Positions 10,974-52,784 of a DNA stretch of 64,000 bases are shown here, one piece after another. The first letter of the stretch is position 1. Every line of letters begins with the position of its first letter. A program made the position numbers and the translations under genes. A model generated the notes under the pieces. It was not told the origin of the DNA, ran no database searches, and was given only the letters and a program-made list of their open reading frames with translations. The DNA comes from a virus: positions 32,001 through 96,000 of the IMG/VR virus record IMGVR_UViG_3300042891_000377. One strand, written 5' to 3'.

Positions 10974-11673
10974 ACAACCATTGGTACTAATAGGATCTAG
11001 AGCCTTAATGGATTTTTATACAGACACCTGCGAAGTATTAGGTATCGAACTATTAGGCTTCTTGGATCAATACTATTGGGGCAATACAGAAAGTATTAGT
11101 GGAGTCCCCTGCATTGGTAGTGAATTAGACCTTATCGACAATCCTAAGAAATATGCCGATGCTAAGTTTATGATTGCCAATACCTGGGACGGAAACAGTC
11201 GTTTTGAAAATTTAGAACACGACGGCTATCATTTAAGACAGCAACGTTTAGCATTTGTTAAACAGTTAGACTTACCGTGTTATACTCTAATTGATCCCAG
11301 AGCAATTGTTGCTAAAAATAATCAAATTGGACAAGGCACATACATTGGTCCATTAGCTAATATTAGATCTAGGAACGTTATTGGCGAGCACGTGTTTATA
11401 CACGATAATGCTATCATGGCGCACGATGTACATGTGGGTGAAAATAGTATATTAGGTGTTGCTAGTGTTATTATGGGCGGAGTGCGTGTAGGCGAAAATG
11501 TATACGTGGGTTCAGGTGCATTATTAGTTAACGGAAAAAGTACTAAACAACCATACATTACAGTGGGAAATGACTGTAAGATACACGCTGGTGCATTGGT
11601 GCAAAAAGATATGGAAGCTGGTACAACTGCTACATTTGTAGGCAAGTACCTAAGAAGAACAGACCTAAGTTAA
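10966..11673 (+). CDS. Hexapeptide-repeat acyltransferase (PglD/NeuD-like)
   Basis: N-terminal Rossmann-like segment plus left-handed beta-helix repeats with AHD. Confidence 0.8.
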   Translation: MSKQPLVLIGSRALMDFYTDTCEVLGIELLGFLDQYYWGNTESISGVPCIGSELDLIDNPKKYADAKFMIANTWDGNSRFENLEHDGYHLRQQRLAFVKQLDLPCYTLIDPRAIVAKNNQIGQGTYIGPLANIRSRNVIGEHVFIHDNAIMAHDVHVGENSILGVASVIMGGVRVGENVYVGSGALLVNGKSTKQPYITVGNDCKIHAGALVQKDMEAGTTATFVGKYLRRTDLS

Positions 11674-11682
11674 GGAACGAAA

Positions 11683-12003
11683 ATGGAAATTATATTTGGT
11701 AGAGAAAATGCAGAAAAACTGCGTGAAAAATATACTGTGTTAGATTTAGAAACAGTTGAAAAAGATGGAGTTGAATTAGAAGTATTCTGCTTAATACCAG
11801 CTGATAAAATTAGTCTTGGTGATTTGCCTACACTAGAGCAGTATACTAATCTACATGCGGAATTTCTTGAAGGATATAAGAATAAACACTACGACTACTG
11901 CCGTCAGTGCATCACTTACCTAATGGGTAAGTTTTCCGGTGAAGTTGACACGTTTTATGAAGAAATACTGCGTAGAATCGATGAAATAGACCCTCCAAAG
12001 TAA
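11683..12003 (+). CDS. Hypothetical protein resembling the C-terminal tail of the window's adenylate cyclase
   Basis: By-eye alignment to the last ~100 aa of 25347-27371. Confidence 0.55.
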   Translation: MEIIFGRENAEKLREKYTVLDLETVEKDGVELEVFCLIPADKISLGDLPTLEQYTNLHAEFLEGYKNKHYDYCRQCITYLMGKFSGEVDTFYEEILRRIDEIDPPK

Positions 12004-12023
12004 TACTATAAGTTAATTATAAT

Positions 12024-12057
12024 AGAGCCCCTGTTAAATAATACTAACGGGGGCTTT
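12024..12057 (+). promoter_or_regulatory. 13-bp hairpin overlapping a late-promoter motif and sequestering the csgF RBS
   Basis: AGAGCCCCTGTTA/TAACGGGGGCTTT arms; TAAATA 12035-12040; GGGGG 7 nt before ATG12061. Confidence 0.5.
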
Positions 12058-12060
12058 CTC

Positions 12061-12558
12061 ATGATTAGGACACCTATCTGCAATCTTTTAATGGTCGCCA
12101 TGCTAATTGCCGGCGCCAATATCGTGCAGGCTGGGGAAATGGTCCATACCTTTAACAGTCCGGCATTCCACGGACAAGGATTTGGTATACATGCCCTTAC
12201 AATTAAGCAATTAGAAGATCAAGCCAAAGACAAGCGCGAATCTGCCGCAGAAGCTATACAGGCTAAAGCAGAATCTGCTGCACTTAATACTCCGCAGGCA
12301 CGCTTTATTGCTAATCTGGAATCGAGAATTTATAGTCAGTTGGCTAAACAACTAACTGATAGTATGTTTGGGGAAGGTGCTACTTGTACTACAGCAGGCA
12401 TAGTATGTGGTAATATTCCAAACTTAGGTGGTAACAGTATCCAGTGGAGTCTTGGAGCAGGTAGTGATAATGGTTTGATTATTATCACCATACAAGATTT
12501 AAGTAATGTTGACAATGTAACAACTATGAAAGTACCGGCGGGCTCATTTTATTTTTAA
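12061..12558 (+). CDS. csgF: Curli assembly protein CsgF-like
   Basis: Signal peptide then GEMVHTFNSPAF.G resembling mature CsgF N-terminus; directly upstream of csgG. Confidence 0.75.
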   Translation: MIRTPICNLLMVAMLIAGANIVQAGEMVHTFNSPAFHGQGFGIHALTIKQLEDQAKDKRESAAEAIQAKAESAALNTPQARFIANLESRIYSQLAKQLTDSMFGEGATCTTAGIVCGNIPNLGGNSIQWSLGAGSDNGLIIITIQDLSNVDNVTTMKVPAGSFYF

Positions 12559-12567
12559 GGATGATAA

Positions 12568-13434
12568 ATGAATAAAACACTTATATCCTTATTAATAGCC
12601 GCGCTGTTAACAGGATGCGCTACAGGTAGTGTTATTAAAGAAAAAATAACAGGTGAGCAATTTGACAAGCCTGAGATAGTACGTGAAACATATTTTACTA
12701 AACCAGAGAATAAGGTATTACCTCCAAGTGGTGGGCCTATTCCTATAGCAGTATATAGTTTTCAGGATAAAACTGGACAGCGTAAGAATATACCTAACGT
12801 GGCTAGTTTTAGTACTGCGGTAACACAGGGTGCAGAAGCATATCTAATTGGTGCTCTACAAGACGTAGGCGACCAACGTTGGTTTACTGTGTTAGAGCGT
12901 GTGGGCTTAGATAACTTGATTAAAGAGCGTCAAATGATTCGTCAAATGCGTGAACAATATCAAGGACGTGACGCTAAGGCATTACCACCAATGATGTTTG
13001 CTGGTGTTATTGTAGAAGGAAGTGTAACAGGTTATGATAGTAATCTGCTTACAGGAGGTAGTGGTATGCGCATACTAGGTATCGGAGCACAAACGCAATA
13101 CCAAAGTGATACAGTTACAATTACTCTAAGAACAGTAAGCGTTAATACAGGTGAAGTATTAACAACTGTAACAGTTACTAAAACAGTGTTAAGCTACATG
13201 GACAAACTTGGTATACTAAAGTTTGTTGAAGAAGGCACAAAAGCCGTTGAAGCTGAAACTGGTATGAGTATCAATGAAAGTGTCAATAAAGCAACTAGCC
13301 TAGCAGTTAAGGCTGCTGTAATTGCTACTATTCGAGAAGGAGTGCGTAAAGGGCACTGGGCATTTAAGGAAGAGCCTAAGCCTGTAGTACAAACAGATGG
13401 TGTAAAATACCCTTTGTTAGAAACAAAAAAATAA
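12568..13434 (+). CDS. csgG: Curli secretion channel lipoprotein CsgG
   Basis: Lipobox LTGC; VYSFQDKTGQRK, FSTAVTQG, WFTVLERVGLDNLIKERQMIR. Confidence 0.92.
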   Translation: MNKTLISLLIAALLTGCATGSVIKEKITGEQFDKPEIVRETYFTKPENKVLPPSGGPIPIAVYSFQDKTGQRKNIPNVASFSTAVTQGAEAYLIGALQDVGDQRWFTVLERVGLDNLIKERQMIRQMREQYQGRDAKALPPMMFAGVIVEGSVTGYDSNLLTGGSGMRILGIGAQTQYQSDTVTITLRTVSVNTGEVLTTVTVTKTVLSYMDKLGILKFVEEGTKAVEAETGMSINESVNKATSLAVKAAVIATIREGVRKGHWAFKEEPKPVVQTDGVKYPLLETKK

Positions 13435-13467
13435 TAATAGGATTTTAAAAATCCAAGGAGCAACACG

Positions 13468-14253
13468 ATGAAATATAATTTAAAAGCAACGGTAAGTATG
13501 ATGTTTTTAGCATTGTCAACATCGGTAATGGCCGCAGGCCCAACAGGTCCTAACCGTGTTTACATTGAACAATTGGGTAACACCAATAATGTTACAATTG
13601 AACAAGTTGGCGGCACTAACGATGTTGGTGGTACCGCTGGTAGTGTAGCAGTTGACGCAACAGGTCTAAGTACATTAACAGTAACAGCACCTAGTACAAG
13701 TAACTATGCTACAATTAACGGCAGTAATAACGGTGTAACTATAACGCAAACTGGTGACGATAATCAATCACAGTACAACATTAAAGGTGGCAATAACAGC
13801 TTTACAAGTACTCTAACTGGTGATGGTAATCAAAGTAAACTTACTATTGGTAATAGCACCACTAATGGTATGCGTAATACTGTTACTGAAACTGTTACAG
13901 GTAGTACTAATATGTTGATTACTAATATTGTTGGTAGTGACAACGCATTATCAACTACTATCACTGGTAGCAGTAACCAACTGACTACTGATGTAACTAC
14001 TAGTAATGCTGATATTACCAACACTATTAGTGGTAGTAACAATATATTTAATATACAACAACGAGATGCTGCAGGCAGTGCTGGCCATAGTTTAATCACA
14101 TCAACTACAGGTGATTATAACAGTATTACTACACAGCAACAAGGTACAAATGATACTACATTGAATATTAGTACAACTGGTGATCATAACACTATTACTA
14201 TACGTTCAAGTAGCAGTGCTATAGTAAGCCCAGTATCAGCAATAGTGAGATAG
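13468..14253 (+). CDS. Secreted curlin-like repeat protein
   Basis: Signal peptide; repeated (Q/I/T)xGxxN beta-solenoid motifs; Thr/Asn/Gly/Ser-rich. Confidence 0.75.
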   Translation: MKYNLKATVSMMFLALSTSVMAAGPTGPNRVYIEQLGNTNNVTIEQVGGTNDVGGTAGSVAVDATGLSTLTVTAPSTSNYATINGSNNGVTITQTGDDNQSQYNIKGGNNSFTSTLTGDGNQSKLTIGNSTTNGMRNTVTETVTGSTNMLITNIVGSDNALSTTITGSSNQLTTDVTTSNADITNTISGSNNIFNIQQRDAAGSAGHSLITSTTGDYNSITTQQQGTNDTTLNISTTGDHNTITIRSSSSAIVSPVSAIVR

Positions 14254-14256
14254 TCA

Positions 14257-15348
14257 ATGAAACTATTGCTTGCTTTAGCGTGCTTAGTAGCAACTACTAA
14301 CGCATGGGCAGGCATTGGAACTGTAAGCGATACTAAAGGTACCGCTTGTTCAATAGAGCGTGCTAAACAGACCCTGCCTGGCAACAAAGGTGCGACCATA
14401 GAAAGTATGGATACCTATGTTACAGGCGGCTGTGTTAGCAATATCACATTTAAAGATGACACCAAAGTAAAAATAACAGAAAACAGTCGACTAATGATAG
14501 ACGACTTTGTTTACGATCCTAAAAAATCCGACGCAGGTAAACTAGCTCTTAAAGTAGGTATGGGCACAGTACGTTATGCCTCTGGACAAATTGCTAAAAA
14601 CAATCCACAAAAGGTAGATATTAAAACACCCACAGCTAGTATTGCTGTTCGCGGTACAGACTTTAACATGACTGTAGACGAAGCAGGACAGAGTTTAGTT
14701 ATTCTTGTGCCTAGCTGTAAAGATGGTGAAAAGATTAAAGAATACGAGCTAGAAGAAAACTTATGTAAAGTGGGCAAGATCGAAGTCAGCACACTGGCTG
14801 GTGTAGTTACCTTAGACAAAGCATTTGAAGGTACGTATGTAACCAGTGCTAACATGATGCCTAGTCCTCCAGCTATTATTAACACAATTGAAAGTAAGAT
14901 TGGTAACAGTCTTATTATCACTCGCCCACCCGAAATTGTCAAAGCTAGTAAAGAAGCAGGTAAAAGCAAACGTGATCTAGAACAAGAAGAACTAGAAGCT
15001 ATTCAAGCAAGTCAACTTGCTCAACGTATAGCTAAAGAAGGTGAAGCTAAAGCTGTAGTGTTGCCTTATAGCTTTGACAGTGGTAAATCAGGATGTAATC
15101 CGGCAATCAATGTCTGCGTTAAATGGGAAAATCCGGATGGTGAAAGCATACAGGCCAAAGGTCGAGGTATAGCGTTTCGTCAAAGTGAAGATCACTATGC
15201 AGAAGTTAAAACACAGGGCTACGAAAGTAATACGTCAATTGAAATAATTCACGATGATAATATTGCCTCAGCTACAATTGGTTCGGGCGATCCAGGTGGC
15301 AATGTAGTGCGTATCAAACAGAATTCTGGAGTGTTAAGACGACAATGA
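14257..15348 (+). CDS. Periplasmic FecR-domain protein
   Basis: Signal peptide; F.DDT.V.ITENSRL.IDDFVYD, IKTPTASIAVRGTDF. Confidence 0.85.
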   Translation: MKLLLALACLVATTNAWAGIGTVSDTKGTACSIERAKQTLPGNKGATIESMDTYVTGGCVSNITFKDDTKVKITENSRLMIDDFVYDPKKSDAGKLALKVGMGTVRYASGQIAKNNPQKVDIKTPTASIAVRGTDFNMTVDEAGQSLVILVPSCKDGEKIKEYELEENLCKVGKIEVSTLAGVVTLDKAFEGTYVTSANMMPSPPAIINTIESKIGNSLIITRPPEIVKASKEAGKSKRDLEQEELEAIQASQLAQRIAKEGEAKAVVLPYSFDSGKSGCNPAINVCVKWENPDGESIQAKGRGIAFRQSEDHYAEVKTQGYESNTSIEIIHDDNIASATIGSGDPGGNVVRIKQNSGVLRRQ

Positions 15349-16472
15349 AACGGCTCCTTGTAATCTTATTATTAGTTTGCTCCAATACCTGGGCCGCAGG
15401 ACTTGCTGGACTTAATTATCAGAACTATGCCGCAGGTGGTGCTATGCCATCATATACGCAAGATGCTAATGGAAACATCACTAATCGCACACTACTATCA
15501 ACTGGAACTGTGAATACGGTGGGATTAACTACTAGTAGTGGAGCAGGCTTGCCTACTCGCAGTGATGGATTTATAGTTCGTTTCTATGGTTACATCAATA
15601 TAGAAACAGCAGGTACATATTACTTTGGCGGGCAAGCAGACGACGGTATCCGTATTAAGATTAATAACATATCTGTGGTTAATAGTTGGATAGAATCTGG
15701 CGGCGCATTTAGAGAAGGCAGCATTACTTTGTCAGCAGGAGTTGTTCCGGTAGAAGTAATGTATTACGAGAACGGCGGTGGACAAATGGTTAACTTCCAA
15801 TGGTTTATGAACGGCTATTGGCAGATTGTACCTACAGCGTCGATAGCTACAGATACTACCTATTGGGCGCCTGCGGCTCCTGTACTATGTTGCGGCGGCA
15901 GTTCGTCAAGTTTTAATGCTAGTCCATCTAATGTAACAAAAGTACAGTCATACGCCACAAGGAATACCAATGACAGTCAGGTGTACATAGACCAAATTGG
16001 TAATGATAACGAGATCACAGTTAACCAAACAGGTACTAAAAATAACTACACAGAATACAATAGTAGTGGTAGTTTCAATACCGTTAATATCTCACAAACT
16101 GGTAATAGTTCAACAACAGCAAACTACGTAGAACTAAATGTCAACGGTGATAGTAATATAGTAAATCTAACGCAGCAGAGTACAGGTGGTGCCAAGGGTA
16201 TCTACGCTACAGTTAACGATGACAATAATAATGTAACAGTCTTACAGAAAGACGGTGGTAATGCTTACTTAAACTTAAACCTAAGTGGCGGTAATAAAAC
16301 TGTAGACATAACGCAACAAGGCAGTGCTGCACACATGGCTGACATTACTCTAACTGGAGCAGGTGCTAGAAGTTTAAACTTAAATCAGCAAGGTAGCACA
16401 CAACAGTTTTACAGTATTAATAGTAGTTGCGCTAGTGCCTGTCAGGCAATAACAGTAATACAAGGACAATAA
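15345..16472 (+). CDS. Secreted PA14-domain plus curlin-repeat protein
   Basis: F.VRFYGYI...GTYYF...ADDGIR...YYENGGG (PA14), then IDQIGNDN/VNQTGTKN repeats. Confidence 0.78.
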   Translation: MKRLLVILLLVCSNTWAAGLAGLNYQNYAAGGAMPSYTQDANGNITNRTLLSTGTVNTVGLTTSSGAGLPTRSDGFIVRFYGYINIETAGTYYFGGQADDGIRIKINNISVVNSWIESGGAFREGSITLSAGVVPVEVMYYENGGGQMVNFQWFMNGYWQIVPTASIATDTTYWAPAAPVLCCGGSSSSFNASPSNVTKVQSYATRNTNDSQVYIDQIGNDNEITVNQTGTKNNYTEYNSSGSFNTVNISQTGNSSTTANYVELNVNGDSNIVNLTQQSTGGAKGIYATVNDDNNNVTVLQKDGGNAYLNLNLSGGNKTVDITQQGSAAHMADITLTGAGARSLNLNQQGSTQQFYSINSSCASACQAITVIQGQ

Positions 16473-16623
16473 CAGCAGAATCAGTGCTGTAACGTTATTA
16501 ATAACTGTTGTATTTTTACAACATTGTTATCAAAAAACAACAAAAGGTTGACTCTCCATTATAAATACTGTACACTGATAGTATAACATATTAGTGTTAT
16601 CCAATAAAAGGAGAAGTATCGTA

Positions 16624-17835
16624 ATGAAGAAATTATTATTAGCAACATTATTAGCAAGTATGTATTCAACTGCGAACGCTGGCATTCAAATTCCAGCTGG
16701 TGATTGGACTCTAGACATCGGCGGCGTTGTAAACGCTTACTACACAAACACACGCGGCACAGGTGATGCTGTAGTTGGTGGCGCCGGTGGCCCTAATACC
16801 AATGGTCAACGCAATGAATCAAATATTACAACTGGTCTATTACCAAACGTATTATCAGTTTCTGGTAAATCACGTCAAAATGATTTAGACATTGGTTTCA
16901 CTATTGCAATCAATCCAGGCGCTTCAACAACAGCAGCTGGTGATCAAGGCGCTAACCAAGAAAATCGTCAAGCATTTTTGACTATCGGTGATAAATCATG
17001 GGGTAGTGTAAAACTAGGTAAAGACCTAGGTATTTTCGCTAGTGATGCTATCTTAAACGACATGACATTGTTAGGTGTTGGTTCTGGTGCTGGCGCACTA
17101 GCTGGTAACACAACTACATTGGGTCGTATTGGTACTGGTTATATGTACGCTGACTGGAAATCACAAATTGCTTACACATCACCAAACTTTAATGGATTTC
17201 AATTCACAGCAGGTGTAACACAAGCATGGAATGCTCAAACAGCTGACTTAAATGCAGCAACAGCAGGTGTACAAGCTGCTTCAGCAACTTCAACAGGCCG
17301 TGGTGGTGCACAACCAGCTTTCGAAGGTAAAGTATCTTACTCATTAGCAGGTCCCATTGCTGCTAAAGTTTGGTCAAGTGCCATTACACAAAAAGTTGAA
17401 GGTGTTACTGGTGCCAGTGCCGATGACCGTGCTTATGCTTGGGACGTTGGTACAAACTTAACAGCTGGTCCATACGGTTTAACTGCTTATTACTTTGATG
17501 GTAAAGGTATTGGCCGTACACTTCAATTAGCTGATGGTTTTGATACTACTGGTCGTCGTCGTGATTCAAACGGTGGTTATGTACAAGGTACATACACATT
17601 GCCAACAGCAACTAAACTTGGCGTAAGCTGGGGTCAAAGTAAACTAGATCGTAACAGTGGTGAAACAGCAACCGCATTAGTTTCGAAAAACGAAATGTGG
17701 ACACTTGGTGCTTACCACCCACTTACTAAATCAGTTAACCTAGTAGCTGAATACTCAGACGTTAAGTCAGAAGCACAAAACGGTGCTGAAGGCAAATCAC
17801 GCTCAGTATCGGCAGGTGCTATCTTATTCTTCTAA
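16624..17835 (+). CDS. Outer-membrane porin (betaproteobacterial general-porin-like)
   Basis: AAGGAG RBS, signal peptide, amphipathic beta strands, C-terminal Phe. Confidence 0.85.
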   Translation: MKKLLLATLLASMYSTANAGIQIPAGDWTLDIGGVVNAYYTNTRGTGDAVVGGAGGPNTNGQRNESNITTGLLPNVLSVSGKSRQNDLDIGFTIAINPGASTTAAGDQGANQENRQAFLTIGDKSWGSVKLGKDLGIFASDAILNDMTLLGVGSGAGALAGNTTTLGRIGTGYMYADWKSQIAYTSPNFNGFQFTAGVTQAWNAQTADLNAATAGVQAASATSTGRGGAQPAFEGKVSYSLAGPIAAKVWSSAITQKVEGVTGASADDRAYAWDVGTNLTAGPYGLTAYYFDGKGIGRTLQLADGFDTTGRRRDSNGGYVQGTYTLPTATKLGVSWGQSKLDRNSGETATALVSKNEMWTLGAYHPLTKSVNLVAEYSDVKSEAQNGAEGKSRSVSAGAILFF

Positions 17836-17859
17836 GATTAACTTCTTAGTCTAATAATT

Positions 17860-17886
17860 AAAAAGCCCACTCCGGTGGGCTTTTTT
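17860..17886 (+). terminator. Intrinsic terminator after porin
   Basis: AAAAAGCCCAC-TCCG-GTGGGCTTTTTT. Confidence 0.88.
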
Positions 17887-17913
17887 ACGGAGATAACATC
17901 ATTTGGTTAAAAA

Positions 17914-18020
17914 TGTAACAAATTGTAAAAATATTGCTTGACAGGTGGCCGGTTATCATATACACTAGTAAACATATAGCAAATCACATTTGTAACAAGA
18001 TGTAACAAACTATATAAATA
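17914..18020 (+). promoter_or_regulatory. xoxF promoter region: sigma70-like promoter, late promoter and TGTAAC direct repeats
   Basis: TTGACA 17938 / TACACT 17961 (17-nt spacer); TATAAATA 18013-18020; TGTAA(C/A) at 17914, 17924, 17991, 18001. Confidence 0.55.
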
Positions 18021-18117
18021 AAGTTGTTATTAAGGGTCCTTAGTAACATTTTCAAAACTTGTGGTCCGCGGCATACAGCAACCGGCACGTTTTTATTTAA
18101 ACACAAGGGAGATGTAA

Positions 18118-19983
18118 ATGAAGTTAAAATCAATTAAAGTAGCATTAAGTTTAGTTTTAGCATTACCAGCAGTAGCTTTCGCAGCAGCTGACCAAGAAAA
18201 AGCAATGAAAGACGCTAACAACTGGGTTGGCCCACGTGGTCAATACGACAACCAAGGTTACAGTGCATTAGCACAAGTTAACAAAGGTAACGTTAAAGGC
18301 CTTAAAGCTGCTTGGACATTCGCTACCGGTGTAAACCGTGGCCACGAAGGTTCACCAGTAGTTGTTGGTAACATGATGTACGTTCACACAGCGTTCCCAA
18401 ACAACGTTTACGCTCTTGACTTAAACGACAATCAAAAAATCGTTTGGTCTTACTTCCCAAAACAAGATCCATCAGTACAAGCTGTATTGTGCTGCGATAA
18501 CGTTTCACGTGGTCTTGGTTACGGCGACGGTAAAATCTACCTACAACAAAACGATGGTAACTTGGTTGCTTTAGACGCTAAAACTGGTGCTAAAGTATGG
18601 TCAACTTTAATCAACGATCCAAAAGTCGGTGCTACTAACACTAATGCTCCACACGTGATCAAAGATAAAGTACTGACAGGTTGTTCAGGTGCTGAATTTG
18701 GTGTTCGTTGCTTTATCGCAGCTTACAACTTAAAAGACGGTTCATTAGCATGGAAAGCATACTCAACAGGCCCTGATGCTGAAATGTTAATCGGCGAAGG
18801 CTTCAACAAAGATACACCTGAGTACAGCGCACTATCAGTTTACCAAGACGTAAACGGTGGTAACAAATTAGGTGGTTCTTTCAACACTATCCCTAATGAC
18901 AAATTAGTAATTGGTCAAAAAGAGTTAGGCACACGTACATGGTTGAAACCACAAGCAGTTAAAGATGGTTGGCAACATGGTGGTGGCTCTGTATGGGGCT
19001 GGTGGCCGTATGATGCTCGTACAAACTTGGTTTACTACGGAACAGGTAACCCATCAGTTTGGAACCCAGATGTACGTCCAGGCGACAACAAATGGTCTAT
19101 GACTGTTTTCGCTCGTGACTTAGACACTGGCGTTGCAAAATGGGGTATGCAAATGACTCCACACGATGAGTGGGATTACGATGGTATTAACGAAGTAATC
19201 TTGTTCGACAAAGGTGGTAAAACATACGCATGGCACCATGACCGTAACGGTTTTGCTTACACTTGGAATGCTGGTAACGGTAAATTAGTTGCTGCAGAAA
19301 AAGTACACCCATTCGTTAACTGGGCAACTGGTGTTGATTTGAAAACAGGCGTGCCTAACAAATTGGCTACTGCTTCAACTCACCAAGATTACAATGCAAA
19401 AGGCGTTTGTCCAGCTGCTTTGGGTACTAAAGACCAACAACCAGCTGCGTACTCACCAAAAACTGGTTTAATTTACACTCCATTGAACCACGTATGTATG
19501 ACATACGAGCCAGTTGAGTCTAAATACGTTGCAGGTCAACCATGGGTTGGTGCTACATTGACCATGTTCCCAGGTCCAGACGGTGTAATGGGTGGTTTCG
19601 GTGCTTACGATCCAATGACAAACAAAAAAGTTTGGTACAACAAAGAGAAATTCTCTGCTTGGGGTGGTGCTTTAACAACTGCTTCAAACTTAGTATTCTT
19701 CGGTACTTTAGATCGTTGGTTTAAAGCTGTAGATGCATCATCAGGTAAAGAACTATGGAAATTCCAAGTTGGTTCTGGCGTGATTGGTAATGCATTCACA
19801 TACGGTCACAAAGGTAAACAACACGTTGGCGTGCTATCAGGTATCGGTGGCTGGGCTGGTGTGGCGATGAACCTTGGTATGACTAACCCAACAGACGCTT
19901 TAGGTGCTGCTGGTGGTTATGCTGAATTAACAAAATACAACGCGGCTCCTGGCGGCGGTGCATTAACAGTATTCAGTCTTTAA
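18118..19983 (+). CDS. xoxF: Lanthanide-dependent PQQ methanol dehydrogenase XoxF
   Basis: Signal peptide; vicinal disulfide LCCD; GAEFGVR; GNPS.W; TPHDEWDYDG with the extra Ln-ligand Asp (MxaF has DYAG); W-docking repeats. Confidence 0.93.
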   Translation: MKLKSIKVALSLVLALPAVAFAAADQEKAMKDANNWVGPRGQYDNQGYSALAQVNKGNVKGLKAAWTFATGVNRGHEGSPVVVGNMMYVHTAFPNNVYALDLNDNQKIVWSYFPKQDPSVQAVLCCDNVSRGLGYGDGKIYLQQNDGNLVALDAKTGAKVWSTLINDPKVGATNTNAPHVIKDKVLTGCSGAEFGVRCFIAAYNLKDGSLAWKAYSTGPDAEMLIGEGFNKDTPEYSALSVYQDVNGGNKLGGSFNTIPNDKLVIGQKELGTRTWLKPQAVKDGWQHGGGSVWGWWPYDARTNLVYYGTGNPSVWNPDVRPGDNKWSMTVFARDLDTGVAKWGMQMTPHDEWDYDGINEVILFDKGGKTYAWHHDRNGFAYTWNAGNGKLVAAEKVHPFVNWATGVDLKTGVPNKLATASTHQDYNAKGVCPAALGTKDQQPAAYSPKTGLIYTPLNHVCMTYEPVESKYVAGQPWVGATLTMFPGPDGVMGGFGAYDPMTNKKVWYNKEKFSAWGGALTTASNLVFFGTLDRWFKAVDASSGKELWKFQVGSGVIGNAFTYGHKGKQHVGVLSGIGGWAGVAMNLGMTNPTDALGAAGGYAELTKYNAAPGGGALTVFSL

Positions 19984-19997
19984 TCTGTAGTTAACCT

Positions 19998-20024
19998 AAA
20001 AAGCCCACTTCGGTGGGCTTTTTT
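19998..20024 (+). terminator. Intrinsic terminator after xoxF
   Basis: AAAAAGCCCAC-TTCG-GTGGGCTTTTTT. Confidence 0.88.
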
Positions 20025-20045
20025 ACCTCTGCAATAAATACTTTT

Positions 20046-20144
20046 ATGTATACTTGGCGCGAAACGTTTATCTTTATTGAAATCATTCTATTCTTCACAC
20101 TCGTGTTTTCTATCCCCTACATAGAACAACTAATCCAACCGTAA
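20046..20144 (+). CDS. Small hydrophobic peptide (32 aa, not in ORF track)
   Basis: MYTWRETFIFIEIILFFTLVFSIPYIEQLIQP; preceded by AATAAATA. Confidence 0.35.
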   Translation: MYTWRETFIFIEIILFFTLVFSIPYIEQLIQP

Positions 20145-20182
20145 CAAAAATTTAATCTGTTTGTAACACTACTGTAATCTTT
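20139..20182 (+). promoter_or_regulatory. Tandem Pho-box-like (PhoB) repeats
   Basis: 11-nt phased units CCGTAACAAAA/ATTTAATCTGT/TTGTAACACTA/CTGTAATCTTT upstream of phosphate genes. Confidence 0.65.
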
Positions 20183-20200
20183 GTGTGTTTAAATATACAT

Positions 20201-20950
20201 ATGACCACAAGATATAAGACCATTTGTATATCCGACTTTCACCTTGGCACTAAAGATGCTAAGGCTGATCTATTAAACAATTTCCTTAAAAATCACACCT
20301 GCGAAAATTTATTTTTAGTTGGTGATATTATTGACGGTTGGAAGATACAGCAGAACAAGTGGAAGTGGCATCAAAGCCATACTAATGTTATTCGTCGTAT
20401 ATTAGGTTATAGCAAGCGAGGTTGTAATGTAACCTATGTAACTGGCAATCATGACGAGTTTCTTCGCCCGTTGGTAAGTCATGGATTCAATCTCGGCAAT
20501 ATTCGTATGGTAAATCAAGCAGAATATCGCAGTATAGATGGCGAGTTGTTTCTAATTACCCACGGCGACTTATTTGACGGTATTACTAGATTAGCACCGT
20601 GGTTAGGATTTTTAGGTGATAAAGCATATGATGTAGCTTTATGGTTTAATAACTATTTTAACTTTGCTCGTAGAAAATTAGGATTTGGTTATTGGAGTTT
20701 AAGCAAGTTTTTAAAAGCTCGCGTTAAGAAAGCAATGGGTTTTGTATTTAAGTTTGAACTTAACATGTTACAGTATGCTCAAAAACAAGGGTATGATGGT
20801 GTTATCTGCGGACATATACACACACCCGAAATTAAACACATCAACGGCATGATTTATATGAACGACGGTGATTGGGTTGAAAGTTGTAGTGCCCTAGTAG
20901 AAGATTATGAAGGACGCTGGGATATTATATATTGGAATGAAATTAAATAG
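20201..20950 (+). CDS. Metallophosphoesterase, LpxH/PlcP-like (probable phospholipase C for lipid remodelling)
   Basis: ISDFHLG, LVGDIIDGW, GNHD, HGD, CGHIH, NDGDWVES. Confidence 0.8.
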   Translation: MTTRYKTICISDFHLGTKDAKADLLNNFLKNHTCENLFLVGDIIDGWKIQQNKWKWHQSHTNVIRRILGYSKRGCNVTYVTGNHDEFLRPLVSHGFNLGNIRMVNQAEYRSIDGELFLITHGDLFDGITRLAPWLGFLGDKAYDVALWFNNYFNFARRKLGFGYWSLSKFLKARVKKAMGFVFKFELNMLQYAQKQGYDGVICGHIHTPEIKHINGMIYMNDGDWVESCSALVEDYEGRWDIIYWNEIK

Positions 20951-20962
20951 GAGAGAATGTAA

Positions 20963-21964
20963 ATGACGATTCAACAGATTAAAACGATAATGTATTATGT
21001 AGTAATAGCATTTGCTGTATCAATGGCTGGATTAAAACAAGTTCAGGCAGCAGACAAAATGGTCAAAATAGACGGCAGTTCGACAGTCTATCCAATATCA
21101 GAAGCAGTAGCAGAAGAATTTCAAAAGAAAACAGGGGTTAAGGTAACAGTAGGTGAAAGTGGTACAGGTGGCGGCTTTAAAAAGTTCTGTCGCAGTGAAA
21201 CTGACATCAGCGATGCTAGTCGTCCTATTTCACAAAAAGAGATGGATGCTTGTAAAGAAGCAGGTGTACAGTACATCGAATTGCCCGTTGCCTACGATGC
21301 TCTAACTGTAGTAGTAAACAGCAAAAATGGCTGGGTTAAATCATTTACAGTTGAAGAATTGAAAAAAATATGGGCACCGGGTAGTTCAGTTAAAAACTGG
21401 AATCAAGTAAATCCAGCTTATCCAAATCAACCACTACAATTATTTGGCCCAGGTACAGCAAGTGGTACATTTGACTACTTCACCGAAGCTATCAATGGTA
21501 AGGCAAAATCCAGTCGCAGCGACTACACACCAAGTGAAGATGACAATGTTCTAGTAACTGGTGTAGCAGGTAATTCGGGGGCACTAGCTTACTTTGGTTA
21601 TGCTTATTACGAAGAAAACAAAGATAAATTACGTGCCATTCCTATCATTGCTAAGGGCTCAACAACGCCAGTATTACCAAGTCCAGAAGCAGTTATGAAT
21701 GGTACCTATCAACCATTAAGCCGCCCACTGTTTATCTATGTAAATGCAACAGCGGCTGCGTTTAGACCAGAAGTAAAAGCATTTGTAAATTTCTATTTAG
21801 AAAATGCACCTAAGTTAGTAAAAGAAGTAAAGTATGTTCCATTACCAGCAGACGACTATGCGGCAGTAACAGAGCATTTCAAAGCACTAAAACCAGGTAC
21901 AGGGTTTAACGGTACTCCAGAAGTAGGCATTAAAATTAAAGACTTAATTAAACGAATCAAATAA
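20963..21964 (+). CDS. pstS: Phosphate-binding protein PstS
   Basis: [44 protein letters not shown]. Confidence 0.93.
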
Positions 21965-21973
21965 GGAAACATT

Positions 21974-23383
21974 ATGACATTAAAAAATATTATCACAGGT
22001 TTATTCATAGCATCAGCATTAATTGCTACACCAGTATATGCAGACAGCACTAACGACATCGTGAATGCGTTGGTGATGAAAGGCGTGTTAACCGAAGAAG
22101 AAGGTGCCTTAATTAACAAAGGTCGTACTGGAGAAACAAGCGCAGTTAAAAAAGAAAAAGATACCACTGTACATGCGGCTAGCAAAATGAATATACGTGG
22201 CTACTTACAGATACGAAATACTACTATGCTCAGTGGTGACGAAGGAGTTAACCTTTGGTCAGATCGATCTGTAGGTGACAAAAATTCACTCGCTGACCAA
22301 GACAAAAACTTCCTAATTCGTCGTGCTCGTATTATTATATCAGGTTCGGCAGGTGATCGTTTAGATTACTATATTCAACCCGACTTTGCTAGTACAGCAG
22401 GTACCACAGGTAACGTTGCGCAACTACGTGATGCTTATGGTGACGTGAATCTAACCAAAGATAAAGTGCACCGTGTGCGTGTGGGTCAAAGTAAAGTACC
22501 ATATGGATTTGAAAACTTACAATCTTCACAAAATCGTTTAGCACTTGATCGTGCCGACGCATTTAACAGCGCAGTACGTGATGAGCGTGATTTAGGTGCG
22601 TTCTACTACTACACACCAGATAATGTACAAAAGTTGTTTAAAGAAATACAAGACAGTGGTTTAAAACATTCAGGTAACTACGGTATGTTTGGCGTTGGTA
22701 TATATAACGGCCAGGGTGCTAACCAACAAGATCGTAACGATAATTATCATACAGTAGCACGTTTTACTTACCCTTGGAAAACAGAAAGCGGACAAATATA
22801 CGAAGCTGGTATACAAGGTTATACAGGCAAGTATGTAAGAACAGGCAGTGCGTATAGAAGAAACATGGGCAACAACGTTTACGCAACTAAAACACCGACA
22901 TTAGAACCGGGCAACACAACTGGATTTAAAGACGAACGTATGGGTGTAAGTTTTATGATGTACCCACAACCGTTTGGTATACAAGGTGAGTGGAACTGGG
23001 GTAAAACTCCTGGCTTAGATACTGCTGCTAGTACTGATGGTATTATCAAAGAAACTAACTTGAACGGTGGTTACATTCAAACTATGTATAAAATTGATAA
23101 CTTTAAAGTATTAGATACCAATGGTACACTAATTCCATTTGTTAGATGGCAATACTTTGATGGTGCGTCAAAAGCAGAAACTAACTCACCAATGAACAAG
23201 GTTAACGATTGGGAGATGGGTGCTGAATGGCAAATCGCGCCAGAGGTTGAACTTGTGGCTTACTATCATATGATGAATCGTAGCAACCTAGTAACAGGAG
23301 CATCGGCTACTACACTAGTAAAGCAGGACTATGCTAACTTTAAAGCAGATGCCCTGCGTGTTCAACTACAGTATAACTTTTAG
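21974..23383 (+). CDS. Phosphate-selective porin (OprO/OprP family)
   Basis: Signal peptide; L..KGVLTEEE; FLIRRARI, LRDAY, GQSKVPYGFENLQSS; C-terminal YNF. Confidence 0.8.
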   Translation: MTLKNIITGLFIASALIATPVYADSTNDIVNALVMKGVLTEEEGALINKGRTGETSAVKKEKDTTVHAASKMNIRGYLQIRNTTMLSGDEGVNLWSDRSVGDKNSLADQDKNFLIRRARIIISGSAGDRLDYYIQPDFASTAGTTGNVAQLRDAYGDVNLTKDKVHRVRVGQSKVPYGFENLQSSQNRLALDRADAFNSAVRDERDLGAFYYYTPDNVQKLFKEIQDSGLKHSGNYGMFGVGIYNGQGANQQDRNDNYHTVARFTYPWKTESGQIYEAGIQGYTGKYVRTGSAYRRNMGNNVYATKTPTLEPGNTTGFKDERMGVSFMMYPQPFGIQGEWNWGKTPGLDTAASTDGIIKETNLNGGYIQTMYKIDNFKVLDTNGTLIPFVRWQYFDGASKAETNSPMNKVNDWEMGAEWQIAPEVELVAYYHMMNRSNLVTGASATTLVKQDYANFKADALRVQLQYNF

Positions 23384-23391
23384 GAAACATT

Positions 23392-23481
23392 ATGTTTGAA
23401 CTTTTTATAGATGCTGTAAAAGATATTAGCGGTATATTGGCGATAATGGCGGCTATTGGTATATGGTCATTTTTACTATAG
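23392..23481 (+). CDS. Small single-TM peptide (29 aa, not in ORF track)
   Basis: AGGA RBS; MFELFIDAVKDISGILAIMAAIGIWSFLL. Confidence 0.45.
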   Translation: MFELFIDAVKDISGILAIMAAIGIWSFLL

Positions 23482-23614
23482 ATTGCAAGAAAATTACTGG
23501 TCTTTAATGATTTTACGTATGTTATTTAGGTCAAAACGGTGTTACTATATGTATAAGTACTAGTAACAACAAAACATGTTGTGGTACTTTTAATAATTTA
23601 CTAGGAGAAATACT

Positions 23615-23686
23615 ATGTGGACTAAACCAGCAGCCACTGAAATGCGTTTCGGTTTTGAAGTAACTCTTTACGTAATGAACCGTTAA
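23615..23686 (+). CDS. pqqA: PQQ precursor peptide PqqA (not in ORF track)
   Basis: MWTKPAATEMRFGFEVTLYVMNR with conserved E-x-x-x-Y; AGGAG RBS. Confidence 0.95.
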   Translation: MWTKPAATEMRFGFEVTLYVMNR

Positions 23687-23709
23687 TTTTAAGGTCCATA
23701 ACGTAAACA

Positions 23710-23732
23710 AAGCCTCTTAGGAGGCTTTTTTA
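23710..23732 (+). terminator. Terminator after pqqA (overlaps the stop of the convergent HNH gene)
   Basis: AAAGCCTC-TTAG-GAGGCTTTTTT. Confidence 0.75.
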
Positions 23733-24181
23733 TTGGCCCGTGTTTCTGCCAAGGATGCTCTAATTTTTGCTCGTGTTTCTTCACTAACGACATGCCCTTT
23801 ACGACTTGCGGCCCAATTAGCCATATGTTCTTCAGACTTCTTTTTGCCCTTCATTGCTTCAGAACGTTTTTTATTGGCTTCTTCTAACTTACCACTTGCT
23901 CGTTGTCTTTCTGTTCTAAGTTTACAACTTTCTCTGAGTTTTGCTTTAGATTCCTCAGACATGGGTTTCTTGCTGCCTTTACTCCTTGCCATAAACATTG
24001 CCTCATCTTGTCCCATTTGCCCAGACAATGCTTGCCAAGCACAATAGTCTTGCCAATTGCCGTGTTGTTCGTACAGCAAGCGATGCGCTTCTGCGTGAGC
24101 TTCTACGGTAAGTTCTATTAGGTTACTAGGATCGTCGGTGCCGCCTAGGTATTGAGGTAAGATGTGATGTATATGTTTCAT
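23717..24181 (-). mobile_element. Free-standing HNH homing endonuclease with NUMOD3-like DNA-binding repeats
   Basis: HIHHILP..LGGTDDPSNL..LT...HAEAH; repeats SEESKAKL / SEETRAKI. Confidence 0.75.
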
Positions 24182-24212
24182 ACAGTTATTTATTATTGTT
24201 ACTTCATAACCT

Positions 24213-24262
24213 ATAAACAAAACTTATTGCGACCATTTAAAAATACAATTAAAAAAACCTAT
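24213..24262 (+). promoter_or_regulatory. Possible OxyR-type site upstream of ahpC
   Basis: ATAA-N7-TTAT-N7-ATTT-N7-CAAT plus ATTA-N7-CTAT; the region is very AT-rich. Confidence 0.4.
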
Positions 24263-24335
24263 TAATCAGGCTTTTTTTATTAAAAATTTTAATATATAAT
24301 ATATGTACATTAACAATTTAATCAAGGGGAAGTAA

Positions 24336-24902
24336 ATGAGTTTAATCGGAAAACAAGTAGAAGCATTTAAAGCACAAGCATACCGTCAAGGTCAGTTTGT
24401 AGAAGTATCAGAGCAAGATTTAAAAGGTCGTTGGAGTATAGTATTCTTTTACCCAGCAGACTTTACATTCGTCTGCCCAACAGAATTAGCAGACTTACAA
24501 GACGTATACGCTAGTGACTTTAAAGCAATGGGGGTAGAAGTATACAGCGTAAGCACAGACACACACTTTGTACACAAAGCATGGGCAGATGCTACAGACA
24601 CAATCCGTAACATCACCTACACAATGATTGGCGATGCTAACCATCAGTTAGCTCGACAATTTGGTGTGCTAATTGAAAGCGAAGGACTAGCTGATCGCGG
24701 TACGTTTGTTATTGATCCAGATGGTGTTGTACAGATCATTGAGATCAATCCAGGGGGTGTTGGCCGTGACGCAAAAGAACTATTGCGTAAAGTTAAAGCG
24801 GCAAAATACACTAGAGAGCATCCGGGTGAAGTATGCCCGGCTAAATGGCAAGAAGGAAGTGCTACCTTAGCACCAAGTTTGGATTTAGTAGGTAAACTAT
24901 AA
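24336..24902 (+). CDS. ahpC: Peroxiredoxin AhpC
   Basis: [21 protein letters not shown]. Confidence 0.95.
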
Positions 24903-24906
24903 AAAC

Positions 24907-24933
24907 AAAAAGCCCCAATTAAGGGGCTTTTTT
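24907..24933. terminator. Bidirectional terminator between ahpC and cytochrome c
   Basis: AAAAAGCCCC-AATTAA-GGGGCTTTTT. Confidence 0.8.
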
Positions 24934-24934
24934 A

Positions 24935-25231
24935 TCACTGAGTTAACACCCATTTAACTAGCGTTTTAATATCCTCGTCTTTGATCTGTGGACTCATTGG
25001 CGGCATTGGGATAGGACCCCATACTCCACTACCACCTGCTTTAACCTTTGCTACTAGTTTAGCCTCTACATCTTGACCTTTGTATTTCTTAGCAACGTCT
25101 TTATACGCTGGACCTAAGATCTTATGATCAACTGCGTGACAAGCTAAACACCCACTTTTCTGTGCCAATGCTTGGTTAGCATTTGCTGTGATGCAACTAC
25201 CTAATAATAATACTGCTAAAATAGTTTTCAT
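24935..25231 (-). CDS. Periplasmic class I cytochrome c (c551/c552-like)
   Basis: Signal peptide, CLACH haem motif, GPAYKDVA, GVWGPIPMPP (axial Met). Confidence 0.92.
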   Translation of the reverse strand: MKTILAVLLLGSCITANANQALAQKSGCLACHAVDHKILGPAYKDVAKKYKGQDVEAKLVAKVKAGGSGVWGPIPMPPMSPQIKDEDIKTLVKWVLTQ

Positions 25232-25346
25232 TTTAGACCTTTCATAAAAGTTAACTTACAATGTATTTAACGCCGATAAACTATATCTATTTATTTTTGG
25301 TAGAATTTTGATTGACGAAAATTCCAAAAGAGTAAATAATAGTACT

Positions 25347-27371
25347 ATGATGAAAAATAAACTTAAAAAACTCCTAGTCAGTCCGTGGACTGCGTTAATT
25401 ACATTAGCTGTTATTGTAGTAGTAATCCTACAAGGACCTACATTCGTAGAGTCGGTTAGACTTAGATACTTTGACACACTGATTAGTGGCAAGGCTCCTA
25501 CAGAAAATAATATCTATACTGTAAACATAGATGAAGCAACATTAGACAAGTATGGGCAATGGCCATTTAAGCGTGACAAGTACGCAGACCTAATTGATGA
25601 CCTGTACAAACATGGCGCTGGCCTAGTTGTTTGGACTGTTATGATGCCAGAAGCAGACCGTCAAGGTGGCGATGCGGCCTTGGCATTAGAGTTAGAGGAC
25701 CATCCAGTTATCCTTACTAACATGCCCAGTGAAAAGTCTAAGAACATCCCACGTAAACCAGGCAGTGCTGTTATTGGTGACGAGTACAGCGACACAATTA
25801 TCACCTATCCGGGTATCATTGCTAACATTCCAGAACTAGAACGTAATGCCGCTGGTGTTGGTATTGCTAACACATTCCCAGAGGTAGATGGTGTTAATCG
25901 TCGACTACCATTGTTCGTTGGTTATGACAATAACGTATATCCAAGTATTCCGTTAGAAGTATTACGTGTTATATCGCAAGACTCAACATTCCAAGTTAAA
26001 CTAAATGAATTTGGTGTTGAGAAAATGCGCATACCAAGTTTCCGTCCTATCAGCACAGATAGCTTAGGTCGTATCTGGGTAGACTGGAGTCAAAAGTCAA
26101 CACAGGTATCAGCAGTCAACTTGCCTACAGACTTTGGTGGTGCTGTGGTTATTGTAGGCCTAAGTGCCGCAGGTTTAGCTAACCCAGTGCCAACTAGTAT
26201 CGGTAGCGTATGGCCACAAGATATGCAGGCCGCTGTTATTGGTACGTTAGCTAACAACGTAAACATTGAACGTCCATTCTGGGCAGACAATGCTGAACTG
26301 TTGGCTCTTATTGTTATCTCACTTATTATTTTAATCTTGAGCCGTTGGGTATATGTTGGCCTAGGAGTTGGCGTTGTATTGCTTGCGGCAATTACACCTG
26401 CAACAATGTATGCGTTTGCGCACTATAACTTCTTGTTTGATGCCATTGTGCCCACAGCAGGCGGTGTACTGGTTATGCTACACGCTTATGGTGTTAAGTT
26501 TATTAGCGAGTTCTTACAGAAACAACAGATCAAGAAACAATTTGGTAGCTACGTTAACCCTACTATTGTTGAACGCTTACAAAAGAATCCAGAGCTGATT
26601 AAACTAGGCGGCGAACGTAAAGAACTTTCAATTGTTATGACTGACCTACGTGGCTTCACAACACTTGGCGAATCGTTTGGTGATGATGTAGAAGGACTTA
26701 CACAGATCATGAATGACTACATGACAGCATTGAGTATTCCTGTGCTAAAGAATGATGGTACTTTAATTAAGTTTATCGGTGATGCTAGTTTACACGTACA
26801 CGGTGCTCCGTTGGATGATGCTAATCACGCTAAGACTGCGGTGCGTACTGCACTCGAAATGATCAAAGCCATTGAAGACTTTAACGTAGAACTTGTTGCT
26901 AGTGGCCGGCCACCGGTTGGTATGGGTGCTGGTGTTAACACAGGTGAAACCTTAATTGGTAACATTGGTGCTAAGAGCAAGTTTGGTTATGACGTTCTAG
27001 GTGACAGTGTAAGTACTGCGGCACGTTTAGAAGGACAAACTAAGTCATATGGTGTGTTACTAATCATCGGTCCTAAGACTGCTGAATACTGTAAAGATGA
27101 CTTCCCTGTAGTATGGTTAGACAACATTGCCGTTAAAGGTAAAACTATTGGCTTAGATATCTACACAGTTGGTCGTACTAATCTTTATATGCACGAGGAG
27201 TATCGTAAAGAATATACTCGTGGTAATTGGGGCAAGGCTATTGTATGGGCTAAAAAATTAGTCAACAACGATGATGTTGATATTAAACATTACTATGAAC
27301 TAATGATTGAACGTATGGAACAGGGTGTTCCTGCAAACTGGGATGGCACTTATCACGCCACTTCAAAATAA
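25347..27371 (+). CDS. CHASE2-domain class III adenylate cyclase
   Basis: N-terminal TM, IDEATL..YGQWPF.R (CHASE2), further TMs, TDLRGFT, KFIGDA, GVNTG, YDVLGD.V..AARLEG. Confidence 0.9.
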   Translation: MMKNKLKKLLVSPWTALITLAVIVVVILQGPTFVESVRLRYFDTLISGKAPTENNIYTVNIDEATLDKYGQWPFKRDKYADLIDDLYKHGAGLVVWTVMMPEADRQGGDAALALELEDHPVILTNMPSEKSKNIPRKPGSAVIGDEYSDTIITYPGIIANIPELERNAAGVGIANTFPEVDGVNRRLPLFVGYDNNVYPSIPLEVLRVISQDSTFQVKLNEFGVEKMRIPSFRPISTDSLGRIWVDWSQKSTQVSAVNLPTDFGGAVVIVGLSAAGLANPVPTSIGSVWPQDMQAAVIGTLANNVNIERPFWADNAELLALIVISLIILILSRWVYVGLGVGVVLLAAITPATMYAFAHYNFLFDAIVPTAGGVLVMLHAYGVKFISEFLQKQQIKKQFGSYVNPTIVERLQKNPELIKLGGERKELSIVMTDLRGFTTLGESFGDDVEGLTQIMNDYMTALSIPVLKNDGTLIKFIGDASLHVHGAPLDDANHAKTAVRTALEMIKAIEDFNVELVASGRPPVGMGAGVNTGETLIGNIGAKSKFGYDVLGDSVSTAARLEGQTKSYGVLLIIGPKTAEYCKDDFPVVWLDNIAVKGKTIGLDIYTVGRTNLYMHEEYRKEYTRGNWGKAIVWAKKLVNNDDVDIKHYYELMIERMEQGVPANWDGTYHATSK

Positions 27372-48369: not shown

Positions 48370-48612
48370 ATGAAAGTAAGCGTTTTATTAACAGCAGTAT
48401 TATTAGCAGTTGCAAGCATTGCATCAGCTGAAGAAGTTAAACAGAACACTAACACTCAACATCAACTATCAAAACGTCCTTATGCAGCGCCTGCTGTAGA
48501 TAAGGAAACATTTGATGGCGCGGTTGTTGATAAAAAAGAAGTAGAGAAACCTACACATTTAAATTTACACATGTTGGGTAAGCGTCCGTTTATGGAAAAA
48601 GCGACTGACTAA
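48370..48612 (+). CDS. Small secreted protein with duplicated HxLxKRP(Y/F) motif
   Basis: GAGGAG RBS; signal peptide; HQLSKRPY and HMLGKRPF. Confidence 0.7.
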   Translation: MKVSVLLTAVLLAVASIASAEEVKQNTNTQHQLSKRPYAAPAVDKETFDGAVVDKKEVEKPTHLNLHMLGKRPFMEKATD

Positions 48613-48619
48613 AGAAATT

Positions 48620-48965: not shown

Positions 48966-48968
48966 AGT

Positions 48969-48998: not shown

Positions 48999-49000
48999 GC

Positions 49001-50875: not shown

Positions 50876-52784
<1,909 letters not shown>

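Follow-up and report, generated by a model that had tools for sequence, protein, structure and literature searches.

A 64,000-nucleotide stretch of viral DNA, hereafter the window (positions 32,001 to 96,000 of the 104 kb IMG/VR record IMGVR_UViG_3300042891_000377, the completeness of which is put at 19% by CheckV), carries a curli-type secretion module together with the genes of a FecR-domain protein and of a CHASE2 adenylate cyclase, all encoded on the plus strand between window positions 11683 and 27371. Judged from gene content and order, this module is a further instance of the published viral type VIII secretion system (T8SS) of the pelagiphage type, as carried by the phages HTVC008M and Melnitz. 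On balance it is probably, though by no means certainly, a viral curli system that makes a lectin-headed fibre and that has been joined to a FecR/CHASE2 sensor pair acting on cyclic AMP (cAMP). The window adds no new kind of system; what is added to the published module is the swapping of lectin heads, a paralogue of the cyclase tail, a change in the cyclase active site, the separate histories of the two halves of the module and the bacterial ancestry of the FecR-CHASE2 pair.

The secretion genes and the curlin subunits

Six closely packed genes occupy positions 11683-16472, from a small reading frame, orf106, to the gene of the second curlin. A preliminary description of this stretch, made from the sequence alone, had listed the last five as an operon (csgF, csgG, curlin, FecR and PA14/curlin), and these genes have been confirmed at 12061-16472 by Pfam, signal peptides and homology. 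Their tight spacing suggests that they may indeed form an operon, and the stop of the FecR gene overlaps the start of the curlin 2 gene by 4 nucleotides. Signal peptides are found on all five exported proteins, namely CsgF, CsgG, curlin 1, the FecR protein and curlin 2.

The CsgF-like T8SS protein (12061-12558; Pfam CsgF, E 7e-10, 39.7 bits against a cut-off of 25.8) has the N-terminal motif FNSPAFHGQG. It is followed by the outer-membrane channel lipoprotein CsgG (12568-13434; Pfam CsgG, E 4e-50, 170 bits against a cut-off of 20.8), which shows the lipobox LLTGC and is 45-48% identical to the CsgG proteins of HTVC008M and Melnitz. The CsgG proteins of many relatives reach 385-470 residues and end with a linker rich in Pro, Lys and Glu, followed by a small C-terminal domain that contains a G-W-V motif and resembles a bacterial SH3 domain; the CsgG of the window (288 residues) is without this extension. 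No match to CsgE (PF10627) was obtained across the 104 kb record, the E. coli control being positive, and CsgE is likewise absent from the published viral and alphaproteobacterial modules (Wittmers et al., 2022; PMC9599517).

Both subunit genes encode curlin repeats. Curlin 1 (13468-14253) is an exported CsgA/B-like protein of 261 residues with xIxQxGxxN repeats; its match to the Pfam family Curlin_rpt is below threshold, and it is homologous to the curlin part, that is the C-terminal half, of curlin 2 (hhalign 98.9%, E 1.5e-17). Curlin 2 (15345-16472; 375 residues) has Curlin_rpt matches above the cut-off and carries an N-terminal PA14 head (Pfam PA14, E 3e-10). In the AlphaFold model of this protein, a PA14 sandwich (residues 20-165) is connected by a disordered linker, in which an LCCGG motif is conserved, to a solenoid (residues 211-373) made of 14 strands in a strand-turn-strand arrangement, with predicted local distance difference test values (pLDDT) >90. 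The preliminary description had stated that PA14 domains often bind glycans; consistent with this, Foldseek matches the modelled head best to a PA14 domain with bound sugar, from the Marinomonas primoryensis adhesin (E 4e-8), and also to yeast flocculins, so that a sugar-binding fold of the adhesin type is predicted. Among 40 relatives the solenoid of curlin 2 is conserved and the head varies: a discoidin domain (F5/8 type C) is present in 13-14 of them and PA14 in six, the head of the rest being either absent or of no recognised type, and the length of the protein ranges from 140 to 852 residues. This pattern fits a subunit of an adhesive fibre whose lectin heads would be exchangeable.

The FecR-fold protein

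The gene lying between the two curlin genes (14257-15348) encodes an exported FecR-domain protein of 363 residues (Pfam FecR, E 8e-11, 42.7 bits against a cut-off of 24), for which more than 6400 relatives exist in metagenomes at 90% identity clustering. The protein consists of a signal peptide, a beta-sandwich (approximately residues 20-200), for which AlphaFold gives a confident model, a helical linker and a C-terminal part of low conservation. The cleavable signal peptide is the sole hydrophobic segment and is directly followed by the FecR domain; topology prediction, domain search and the model agree on the absence of both a transmembrane anchor and an N-terminal anti-sigma domain. The top Foldseek matches of the N-terminal domain are the C-terminal cell-surface signalling domain of PupR (6ovk) and the anti-sigma structure 4m0h, at E 1e-4, and among the genes of the cluster there is neither an extracytoplasmic function (ECF) sigma factor nor a TonB-dependent transducer. 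The phage protein is not an anti-sigma factor and has no tie to iron, and the name of iron regulator, under which it was read by Wittmers et al. (2022; PMC9599517), is not justified.

Whether the FecR protein ends in a curlin-like repeat, by which it would be physically bound to the fibre, was also considered. A hidden Markov model of the last 75 residues retrieved no curlin at E<1 among 5702 open reading frames (ORFs), the hhalign probability was 8% and the AlphaFold model is of low confidence in this part; the candidate was rejected as unsupported.

The CHASE2 adenylate cyclase

The last gene of the module encodes a receptor-type class III adenylate cyclase, which is the sole CHASE2 protein of the 104 kb record. 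Its ORF spans 25308-27371, and the start is probably the ATG at 25347, since the relatives begin aligning there. The preliminary description had placed a CHASE2 membrane cyclase 9 kb after the csg block: the gene is borne out by Pfam (CHASE2, E 6e-37, 128 bits against a cut-off of 26.3, residues 34-342; Guanylate_cyc, E 9e-18), and the gap, measured to the start at 25347, is corrected to 8.9 kb. The topology comprises a transmembrane helix, a periplasmic CHASE2 domain, three transmembrane helices, a cytoplasmic cyclase domain and a C-terminal tail, with hydrophobic segments at residues 19-52 and 323-393. The best sequence matches in the PDB are class III cyclases. The catalytic set includes the metal-binding Asp446 and Asp492, the pair Lys488/Asp562 and Arg573; a Lys/Asp pair is typical of ATP-specific class III cyclases. 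From these features the protein is predicted to be an inner-membrane CHASE2 adenylate cyclase with specificity of the ATP type.

Co-occurrence of the module genes in related phages

The preliminary description had proposed to survey gene neighbourhoods for an association between the cyclase and the csg-FecR block. Two sets of IMG/VR loci were examined, 80 anchored on CsgG and 80 anchored on the cyclase (approximately 160 together), and the gene order CsgF, CsgG, curlin 1, FecR, curlin 2, zero to five other genes, cyclase is nearly universal among them. The cyclase was found in all 45 CsgG-anchored loci with at least 9 kb of downstream sequence, within 10 kb in 42 and at 11-18 kb, on the same strand, in three. 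From the opposite side, csgFG and FecR are present in the cyclase-anchored loci with sufficient upstream sequence; three long records seemingly devoid of csg genes, including a complete relative of 329 kb with terminal repeats, have csgG 16-19 kb upstream of the cyclase. Four loci have the csg block inverted 3' of the cyclase, the linkage being kept despite the rearrangement. The association is therefore seen in every related record that is long enough, and the lack of co-occurrence that the preliminary description had named as refuting its idea was not encountered. Among 50,697 GenBank phage records, CsgG and the CHASE2 cyclase were found in identical isolates only, Melnitz and HTVC008M. The genes of the module stay together across deep divergence.

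The distance between the two ends of the module varies. The FecR gene of the window stands 10 kb from that of the cyclase. In most relatives the FecR and cyclase genes are parted by curlin 2 alone, with 12-400 bp between the curlin 2 and cyclase genes; over all relatives this junction extends from 12 bp to approximately 19 kb of varying genes, encoding metallophosphoesterase, PstS, porins, a glycosyltransferase, an epimerase, an autotransporter, an amidoligase and unknown proteins. The content differs between relatives in which the flanking genes are >90% identical. Insertions recur at the curlin-2/cyclase junction, a hotspot of recombination of which the island in the window represents one state.

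The two ends of the module are also linked by orf106 (11683-12003, plus strand), which stands at the head of the csg block and encodes a small cytoplasmic protein of 106 codons. No Pfam or NCBIfam family matches it. Its family aligns with the C-termini of the cyclases (hhalign 97.8%, E 1e-12, 99 columns), tblastn gives matches inside the cyclase genes of other loci (E 1e-5 to 1e-10) and a weak collinear BLASTP match links it to the cyclase of the window. The nearest named cluster in the ESM Atlas carries Guanylate_cyc (score 0.86), which is a lead only. The protein aligns over its full length with the last ~100 residues of the cyclase, comprising the final strands of the catalytic domain and a helical tail, and is without any catalytic residues. 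It lies 5' of csgF in approximately 29 loci and is under purifying selection (ratio of non-synonymous to synonymous substitution rates, dN/dS, 0.06-0.2). Taken together, these alignments identify orf106 as a stand-alone paralogue of the cyclase C-terminal tail, and it could modulate the cyclase.

Bacterial relatives of the sensor genes

The bacterial context of the two sensor genes was drawn from plasmid records; a search of genome contigs with the FecR alignment gave as sole match a phage-like contig in a metagenome-assembled genome. The best plasmid-borne homologues of the cyclase, from Ensifer, Paracoccus (pAMI5), Shinella and Ruegeria, share 27-29% identity over 64-93% of the length, the Ruegeria match being the shortest, and their genes directly adjoin one annotated as encoding a 'FecR domain-containing protein', often with a TPR protein as a further neighbour. 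The same pairing is obtained from the other gene: the best bacterial matches of the phage FecR domain, in Ruegeria, Paraburkholderia and Rhizobium CB3090, also adjoin CHASE2 proteins, the order in Paraburkholderia being FecR, OmpA-family protein, CHASE2, and one Ensifer FecR locus has a cyclase-domain gene 4 kb away. FecR-CHASE2 pairing has been reported for a LysM-FecR protein with a CHASE2 kinase in Burkholderia, for cyaD1/smc02177 in Sinorhizobium and for Campylobacterota (PMC5192318; PMC5498481; PMC9239204). The frequent link between CHASE2 and FecR-domain proteins in bacteria, which the preliminary description had stated, is thus well founded, both in these papers and in the plasmid loci.

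An NHLP-type bacteriocin exporter is the neighbour of the FecR/CHASE2-cyclase pair on the Ensifer and Shinella plasmids, and bacterial pairs of this kind may often accompany export machinery.

Proposed mechanism and alternative explanations

From a mechanistic perspective, CsgG and CsgF would form an outer-membrane channel in the infected cell, and both curlins would be exported to build a curli-like fibre displaying the lectin head, so that the infected cell would adhere to glycans. At the same time, an envelope sensor pair like those often met in bacteria would be constituted by the FecR-fold protein and the CHASE2 cyclase; this pair would have been joined to the secretion genes in the phage lineage and would alter the cAMP of the host.

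Several observations weigh against this proposal. No clumping was seen for cells infected by Melnitz (Buchholz et al., 2022; PMC9004378). The cyclase of the window belongs to a separate transcription unit, 8.9 kb from the csg block, because two genes on the minus strand lie in the gap, together with strong hairpins resembling terminators at 23709 and 24907. The cyclase has Ser569 at the position of the transition-state Asn, so that its activity is not assured; the combination Asp plus Ser occurs in 28 of 37 phage cyclases, that of the window included, and Thr or Ser plus Asn in the remaining nine, and the conservation of the change among phage cyclases indicates that the protein is under selection. 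A cyclic-nucleotide-binding domain (PF00027) is absent from the record, from the complete relative and from four other long records, and any cAMP would therefore act on host proteins. Moreover, the surveyed loci all belong to one phage lineage, so that their co-occurrence is partly due to common descent.

The same direction is taken by a distance comparison, made pair by pair over 68 non-identical loci. All pairs among CsgF, CsgG and the two halves of the FecR protein are highly correlated (r 0.79-0.91; r ~0.86 for FecR with CsgG or CsgF), and the clusters of FecR and CsgG agree with an adjusted Rand index (ARI) of 0.87. The correlation between FecR and CHASE2, on the other hand, is low (r 0.15, partial 0.11; ARI -0.05), from which it follows that the cyclase gene has been exchanged independently of the csg-FecR block; such exchange would be expected with recombination at the island site. 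The cyclase gene is itself mosaic, with r 0.11 between CHASE2 and the cyclase domain. As far as distances can tell, the history of FecR is that of the secretion genes, and a co-adapted FecR-CHASE2 pair gets no support. Contact between FecR and CHASE2 is left possible by this test, because CHASE2 is the most conserved part (median identity 64%) and could keep a generic interface.

These data bear directly on two other explanations, which we consider about equally likely and, each on its own, rather unlikely. According to the first, which is the chain proposed in the preliminary description, the lectin-tipped fibre would detect contact with cells, particles or superinfecting phage and relay it through CsgG/CsgF and FecR to the cAMP output of the CHASE2 cyclase. 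The FecR fold in PupR/FecR systems does bind the periplasmic signalling domain of an outer-membrane protein, the phage FecR gene lies between those of the two curlins, with a translational overlap with the second, the lectin heads vary in the manner of receptor-binding modules, and the FecR-CHASE2 pairing exists in bacteria. Against such a relay, co-evolution of FecR with CHASE2 is undetectable in data that are well powered for FecR and CsgG, the curlin-like element sought in the FecR protein found no support, and the reader of cAMP is missing from the six records named above. We know of no precedent for the transmission of force or contact through an amyloid fibre, which also counts against it.

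According to the second explanation, the FecR protein would be a periplasmic T8SS accessory replacing the CsgE gate or chaperone, and the cyclase would be an independent host-manipulating gene located in a hypervariable region. The tight co-evolution of FecR with CsgG, CsgF and curlin 1, which is not shared by the cyclase, agrees well with it, as do the absence of CsgE from the record and from the viral modules (PMC9599517) and the position of the cyclase, which is parted from the block by islands of up to ~19 kb and has recombined independently. The best bacterial relatives of FecR and of the cyclase, however, adjoin each other and not T8SS genes; the cyclase is kept in every record that is long enough, also after inversion; and a paralogue of its tail, orf106, sits at the csg end. 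These three facts count against the proposal, which we regard as having a minor share of the probability.

An extended form of the contact relay, in which the exchangeable lectin head would report the glycans of neighbour cells, particles or algae and orf106 would modulate the cyclase output, appears still more doubtful; if it were true, the cAMP of the infected cell, and hence host physiology or the timing of lysis, would depend on the surface being touched. Finally, it is quite improbable that no fibre is made and that CsgG and CsgF act as a pore, either to time lysis (in the manner of a pinholin or secretin) or to take up solutes, with the curlins otherwise employed: a pore role was proposed for Melnitz and the first pelagimyophage genomes (PMC9004378; PMC7029224), the pore is without a CsgE gate and Melnitz cultures do not clump, but two exported curlin-repeat proteins are conserved beside the pore in essentially all loci, one of them is modelled with confidence as a lectin-headed beta-solenoid, and the earlier papers had not recognised the curlins, which were later found by Wittmers et al. 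(PMC9599517).

To our knowledge, the hosts SAR11 and OM43 encode no curli system themselves, so that the module would give very abundant ocean bacteria a new surface structure when they are infected; it probably also gives infected cells a new second-messenger input. Few auxiliary gene sets are more abundant in marine phages than this module. For two culturable pairs of phage and host, Melnitz/H5P1 and HTVC008M/HTCC1062, the range of hypotheses is narrowed by the comparative results.

The cargo island

The DNA between curlin 2 and the cyclase (16473-25346) is an inserted cargo island that lies outside the module; its genes, within 16594-25231, were assigned by Pfam and NCBIfam. They encode a porin, an XoxF-type dehydrogenase of the methanol/ethanol family dependent on pyrroloquinoline quinone (TIGR03075, 613 bits), an LpxH/PlcP-like metallophosphoesterase, a PstS-like binding protein, a phosphate-selective porin, an HNH-NUMOD3 endonuclease (minus strand), a peroxiredoxin and a cytochrome c (minus strand). 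The metallophosphoesterase of the junction was considered as a cAMP phosphodiesterase and rejected: the nearest NCBIfam family is of the LpxH type (below cut-off), and the gene adjoins those of PstS and the phosphate porin. It looks like a phosphorus-stress gene of the PlcP type, outside the signalling system.

The motif TATAAATA occurs at 16560 and 18013. The counts of sigma-70 promoter and T4 late-promoter motifs in the window show no excess over chance, and for this reason no transcription model is claimed.

The carrier phage and neighbouring genes

As the preliminary description had assumed, the system is encoded by a phage: the window contains virion and tail-fibre PHROGs, GroEL, a transfer-messenger RNA (tmRNA) and an HNH homing endonuclease. 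The module is apparently carried by an uncultured marine T4-like jumbo phage, much larger than HTVC008M and Melnitz. The tmRNA gene, of the permuted type, was located by ARAGORN at 48598-49014; a tmRNA has reportedly been described in the related phage Melnitz as well. Genes for GroEL and for a protein of the tryptophan-halogenase family lie at 51147-52784 and 62314-63918 (PHROG matches, E 7e-173 and 3e-148).

On the 3' side of the cyclase, an exported S11 D-Ala-D-Ala carboxypeptidase with a signal peptide is encoded at 28110-28895 on the plus strand (Pfam Peptidase_S11, E 9e-42). Its gene follows that of the cyclase, directly or within ~1 kb, in approximately 30 related loci, and it may be a further envelope-acting accessory of the module. 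Upstream of the module, at 9397-11673, there are two fatty-acid desaturase genes and the gene of a hexapeptide acyltransferase; desaturase homologues are found just 3' of the cyclase, on the opposite strand, in several relatives.

Comparison with known systems

The nearest known system is the viral T8SS of pelagiphages. A partial curli operon was reported by Zaragoza-Solas et al. (2020; PMC7029224), the curli genes of Melnitz were discussed by Buchholz et al. (2022; PMC9004378), and the arrangement CsgF-CsgG-CsgA/B-FecR-CsgA/B-adenylate cyclase was described in pelagi-podophages and pelagi-myophages by Wittmers et al. (2022; PMC9599517), who found the module expressed in metatranscriptomes and argued that selection acts on several of its genes together. 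The preliminary description had presented the link between the phage csg genes and signalling genes as new; this claim does not hold, since FecR and cyclase had already been reported together with the phage T8SS (PMC9599517), and the genes are annotated as such in Melnitz. CHASE2 and PA14 are unmentioned in these three papers, and a later literature search added nothing further.

In HTVC008M (KC465899, 7562-13807) the contiguous genes are annotated as csgF, csgG, curlin, two 'hypothetical' genes and an adenylate/guanylyl cyclase, the hypothetical genes being homologues of FecR and of the second curlin. In the Methylophilales phage Melnitz (MZ577097, 50731-56876) the annotation reads CsgF, CsgG, curlin-repeat protein, FecR domain, curlin-repeat protein and cyclase, again contiguous. 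The module proteins of the window are homologous to those of HTVC008M and Melnitz (37-48% identity), and in tblastn searches with all six the identities are 26-45% for HTVC008M and up to 99% for IMG/VR loci. Gene set and order are common to the pelagiphage modules and the window, and CsgE and CsgD are absent from both; the window differs in the 8.9 kb island before the cyclase, in the PA14 head on curlin 2 and in having orf106, rather than a histidine kinase, before csgF.

Bacterial curli systems (csgBAC-csgDEFG of E. coli and the alphaproteobacterial csgFG loci) share with the window the CsgG lipoprotein, CsgF and exported curlin-repeat subunits, and in Azospirillum the order csgF-csgG-subunit is also that of the window. 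Unlike them, the window is without CsgE, CsgC/H and CsgD, and the phage system has a FecR gene placed between the subunit genes, one lectin-headed subunit and a linked receptor cyclase; the alphaproteobacterial csgFG loci inspected contain neither a FecR nor a cyclase gene. With the FecR/PupR anti-sigma factors of TonB-dependent surface signalling, the phage FecR protein has the periplasmic fold in common, as indicated by the Foldseek matches at E 1e-4, whereas the cytoplasmic anti-sigma domain and the transmembrane helix of those factors are missing from it.

The bacterial FecR plus CHASE2 modules, such as S. meliloti CyaD1/SMc02177, resemble the phage genes in that an exported FecR protein stands beside a CHASE2 receptor, often a class III cyclase. 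They differ in being without a link to CsgG/F, in the frequent company of TPR proteins, OmpA-family proteins or an NHLP exporter, and in their cyclases, which retain the catalytic Asn together with a Lys/Thr or Lys/Ser pair. Seen from both sides, the phage module has the appearance of a T8SS merged with a FecR/CHASE2 sensor pair from bacteria.

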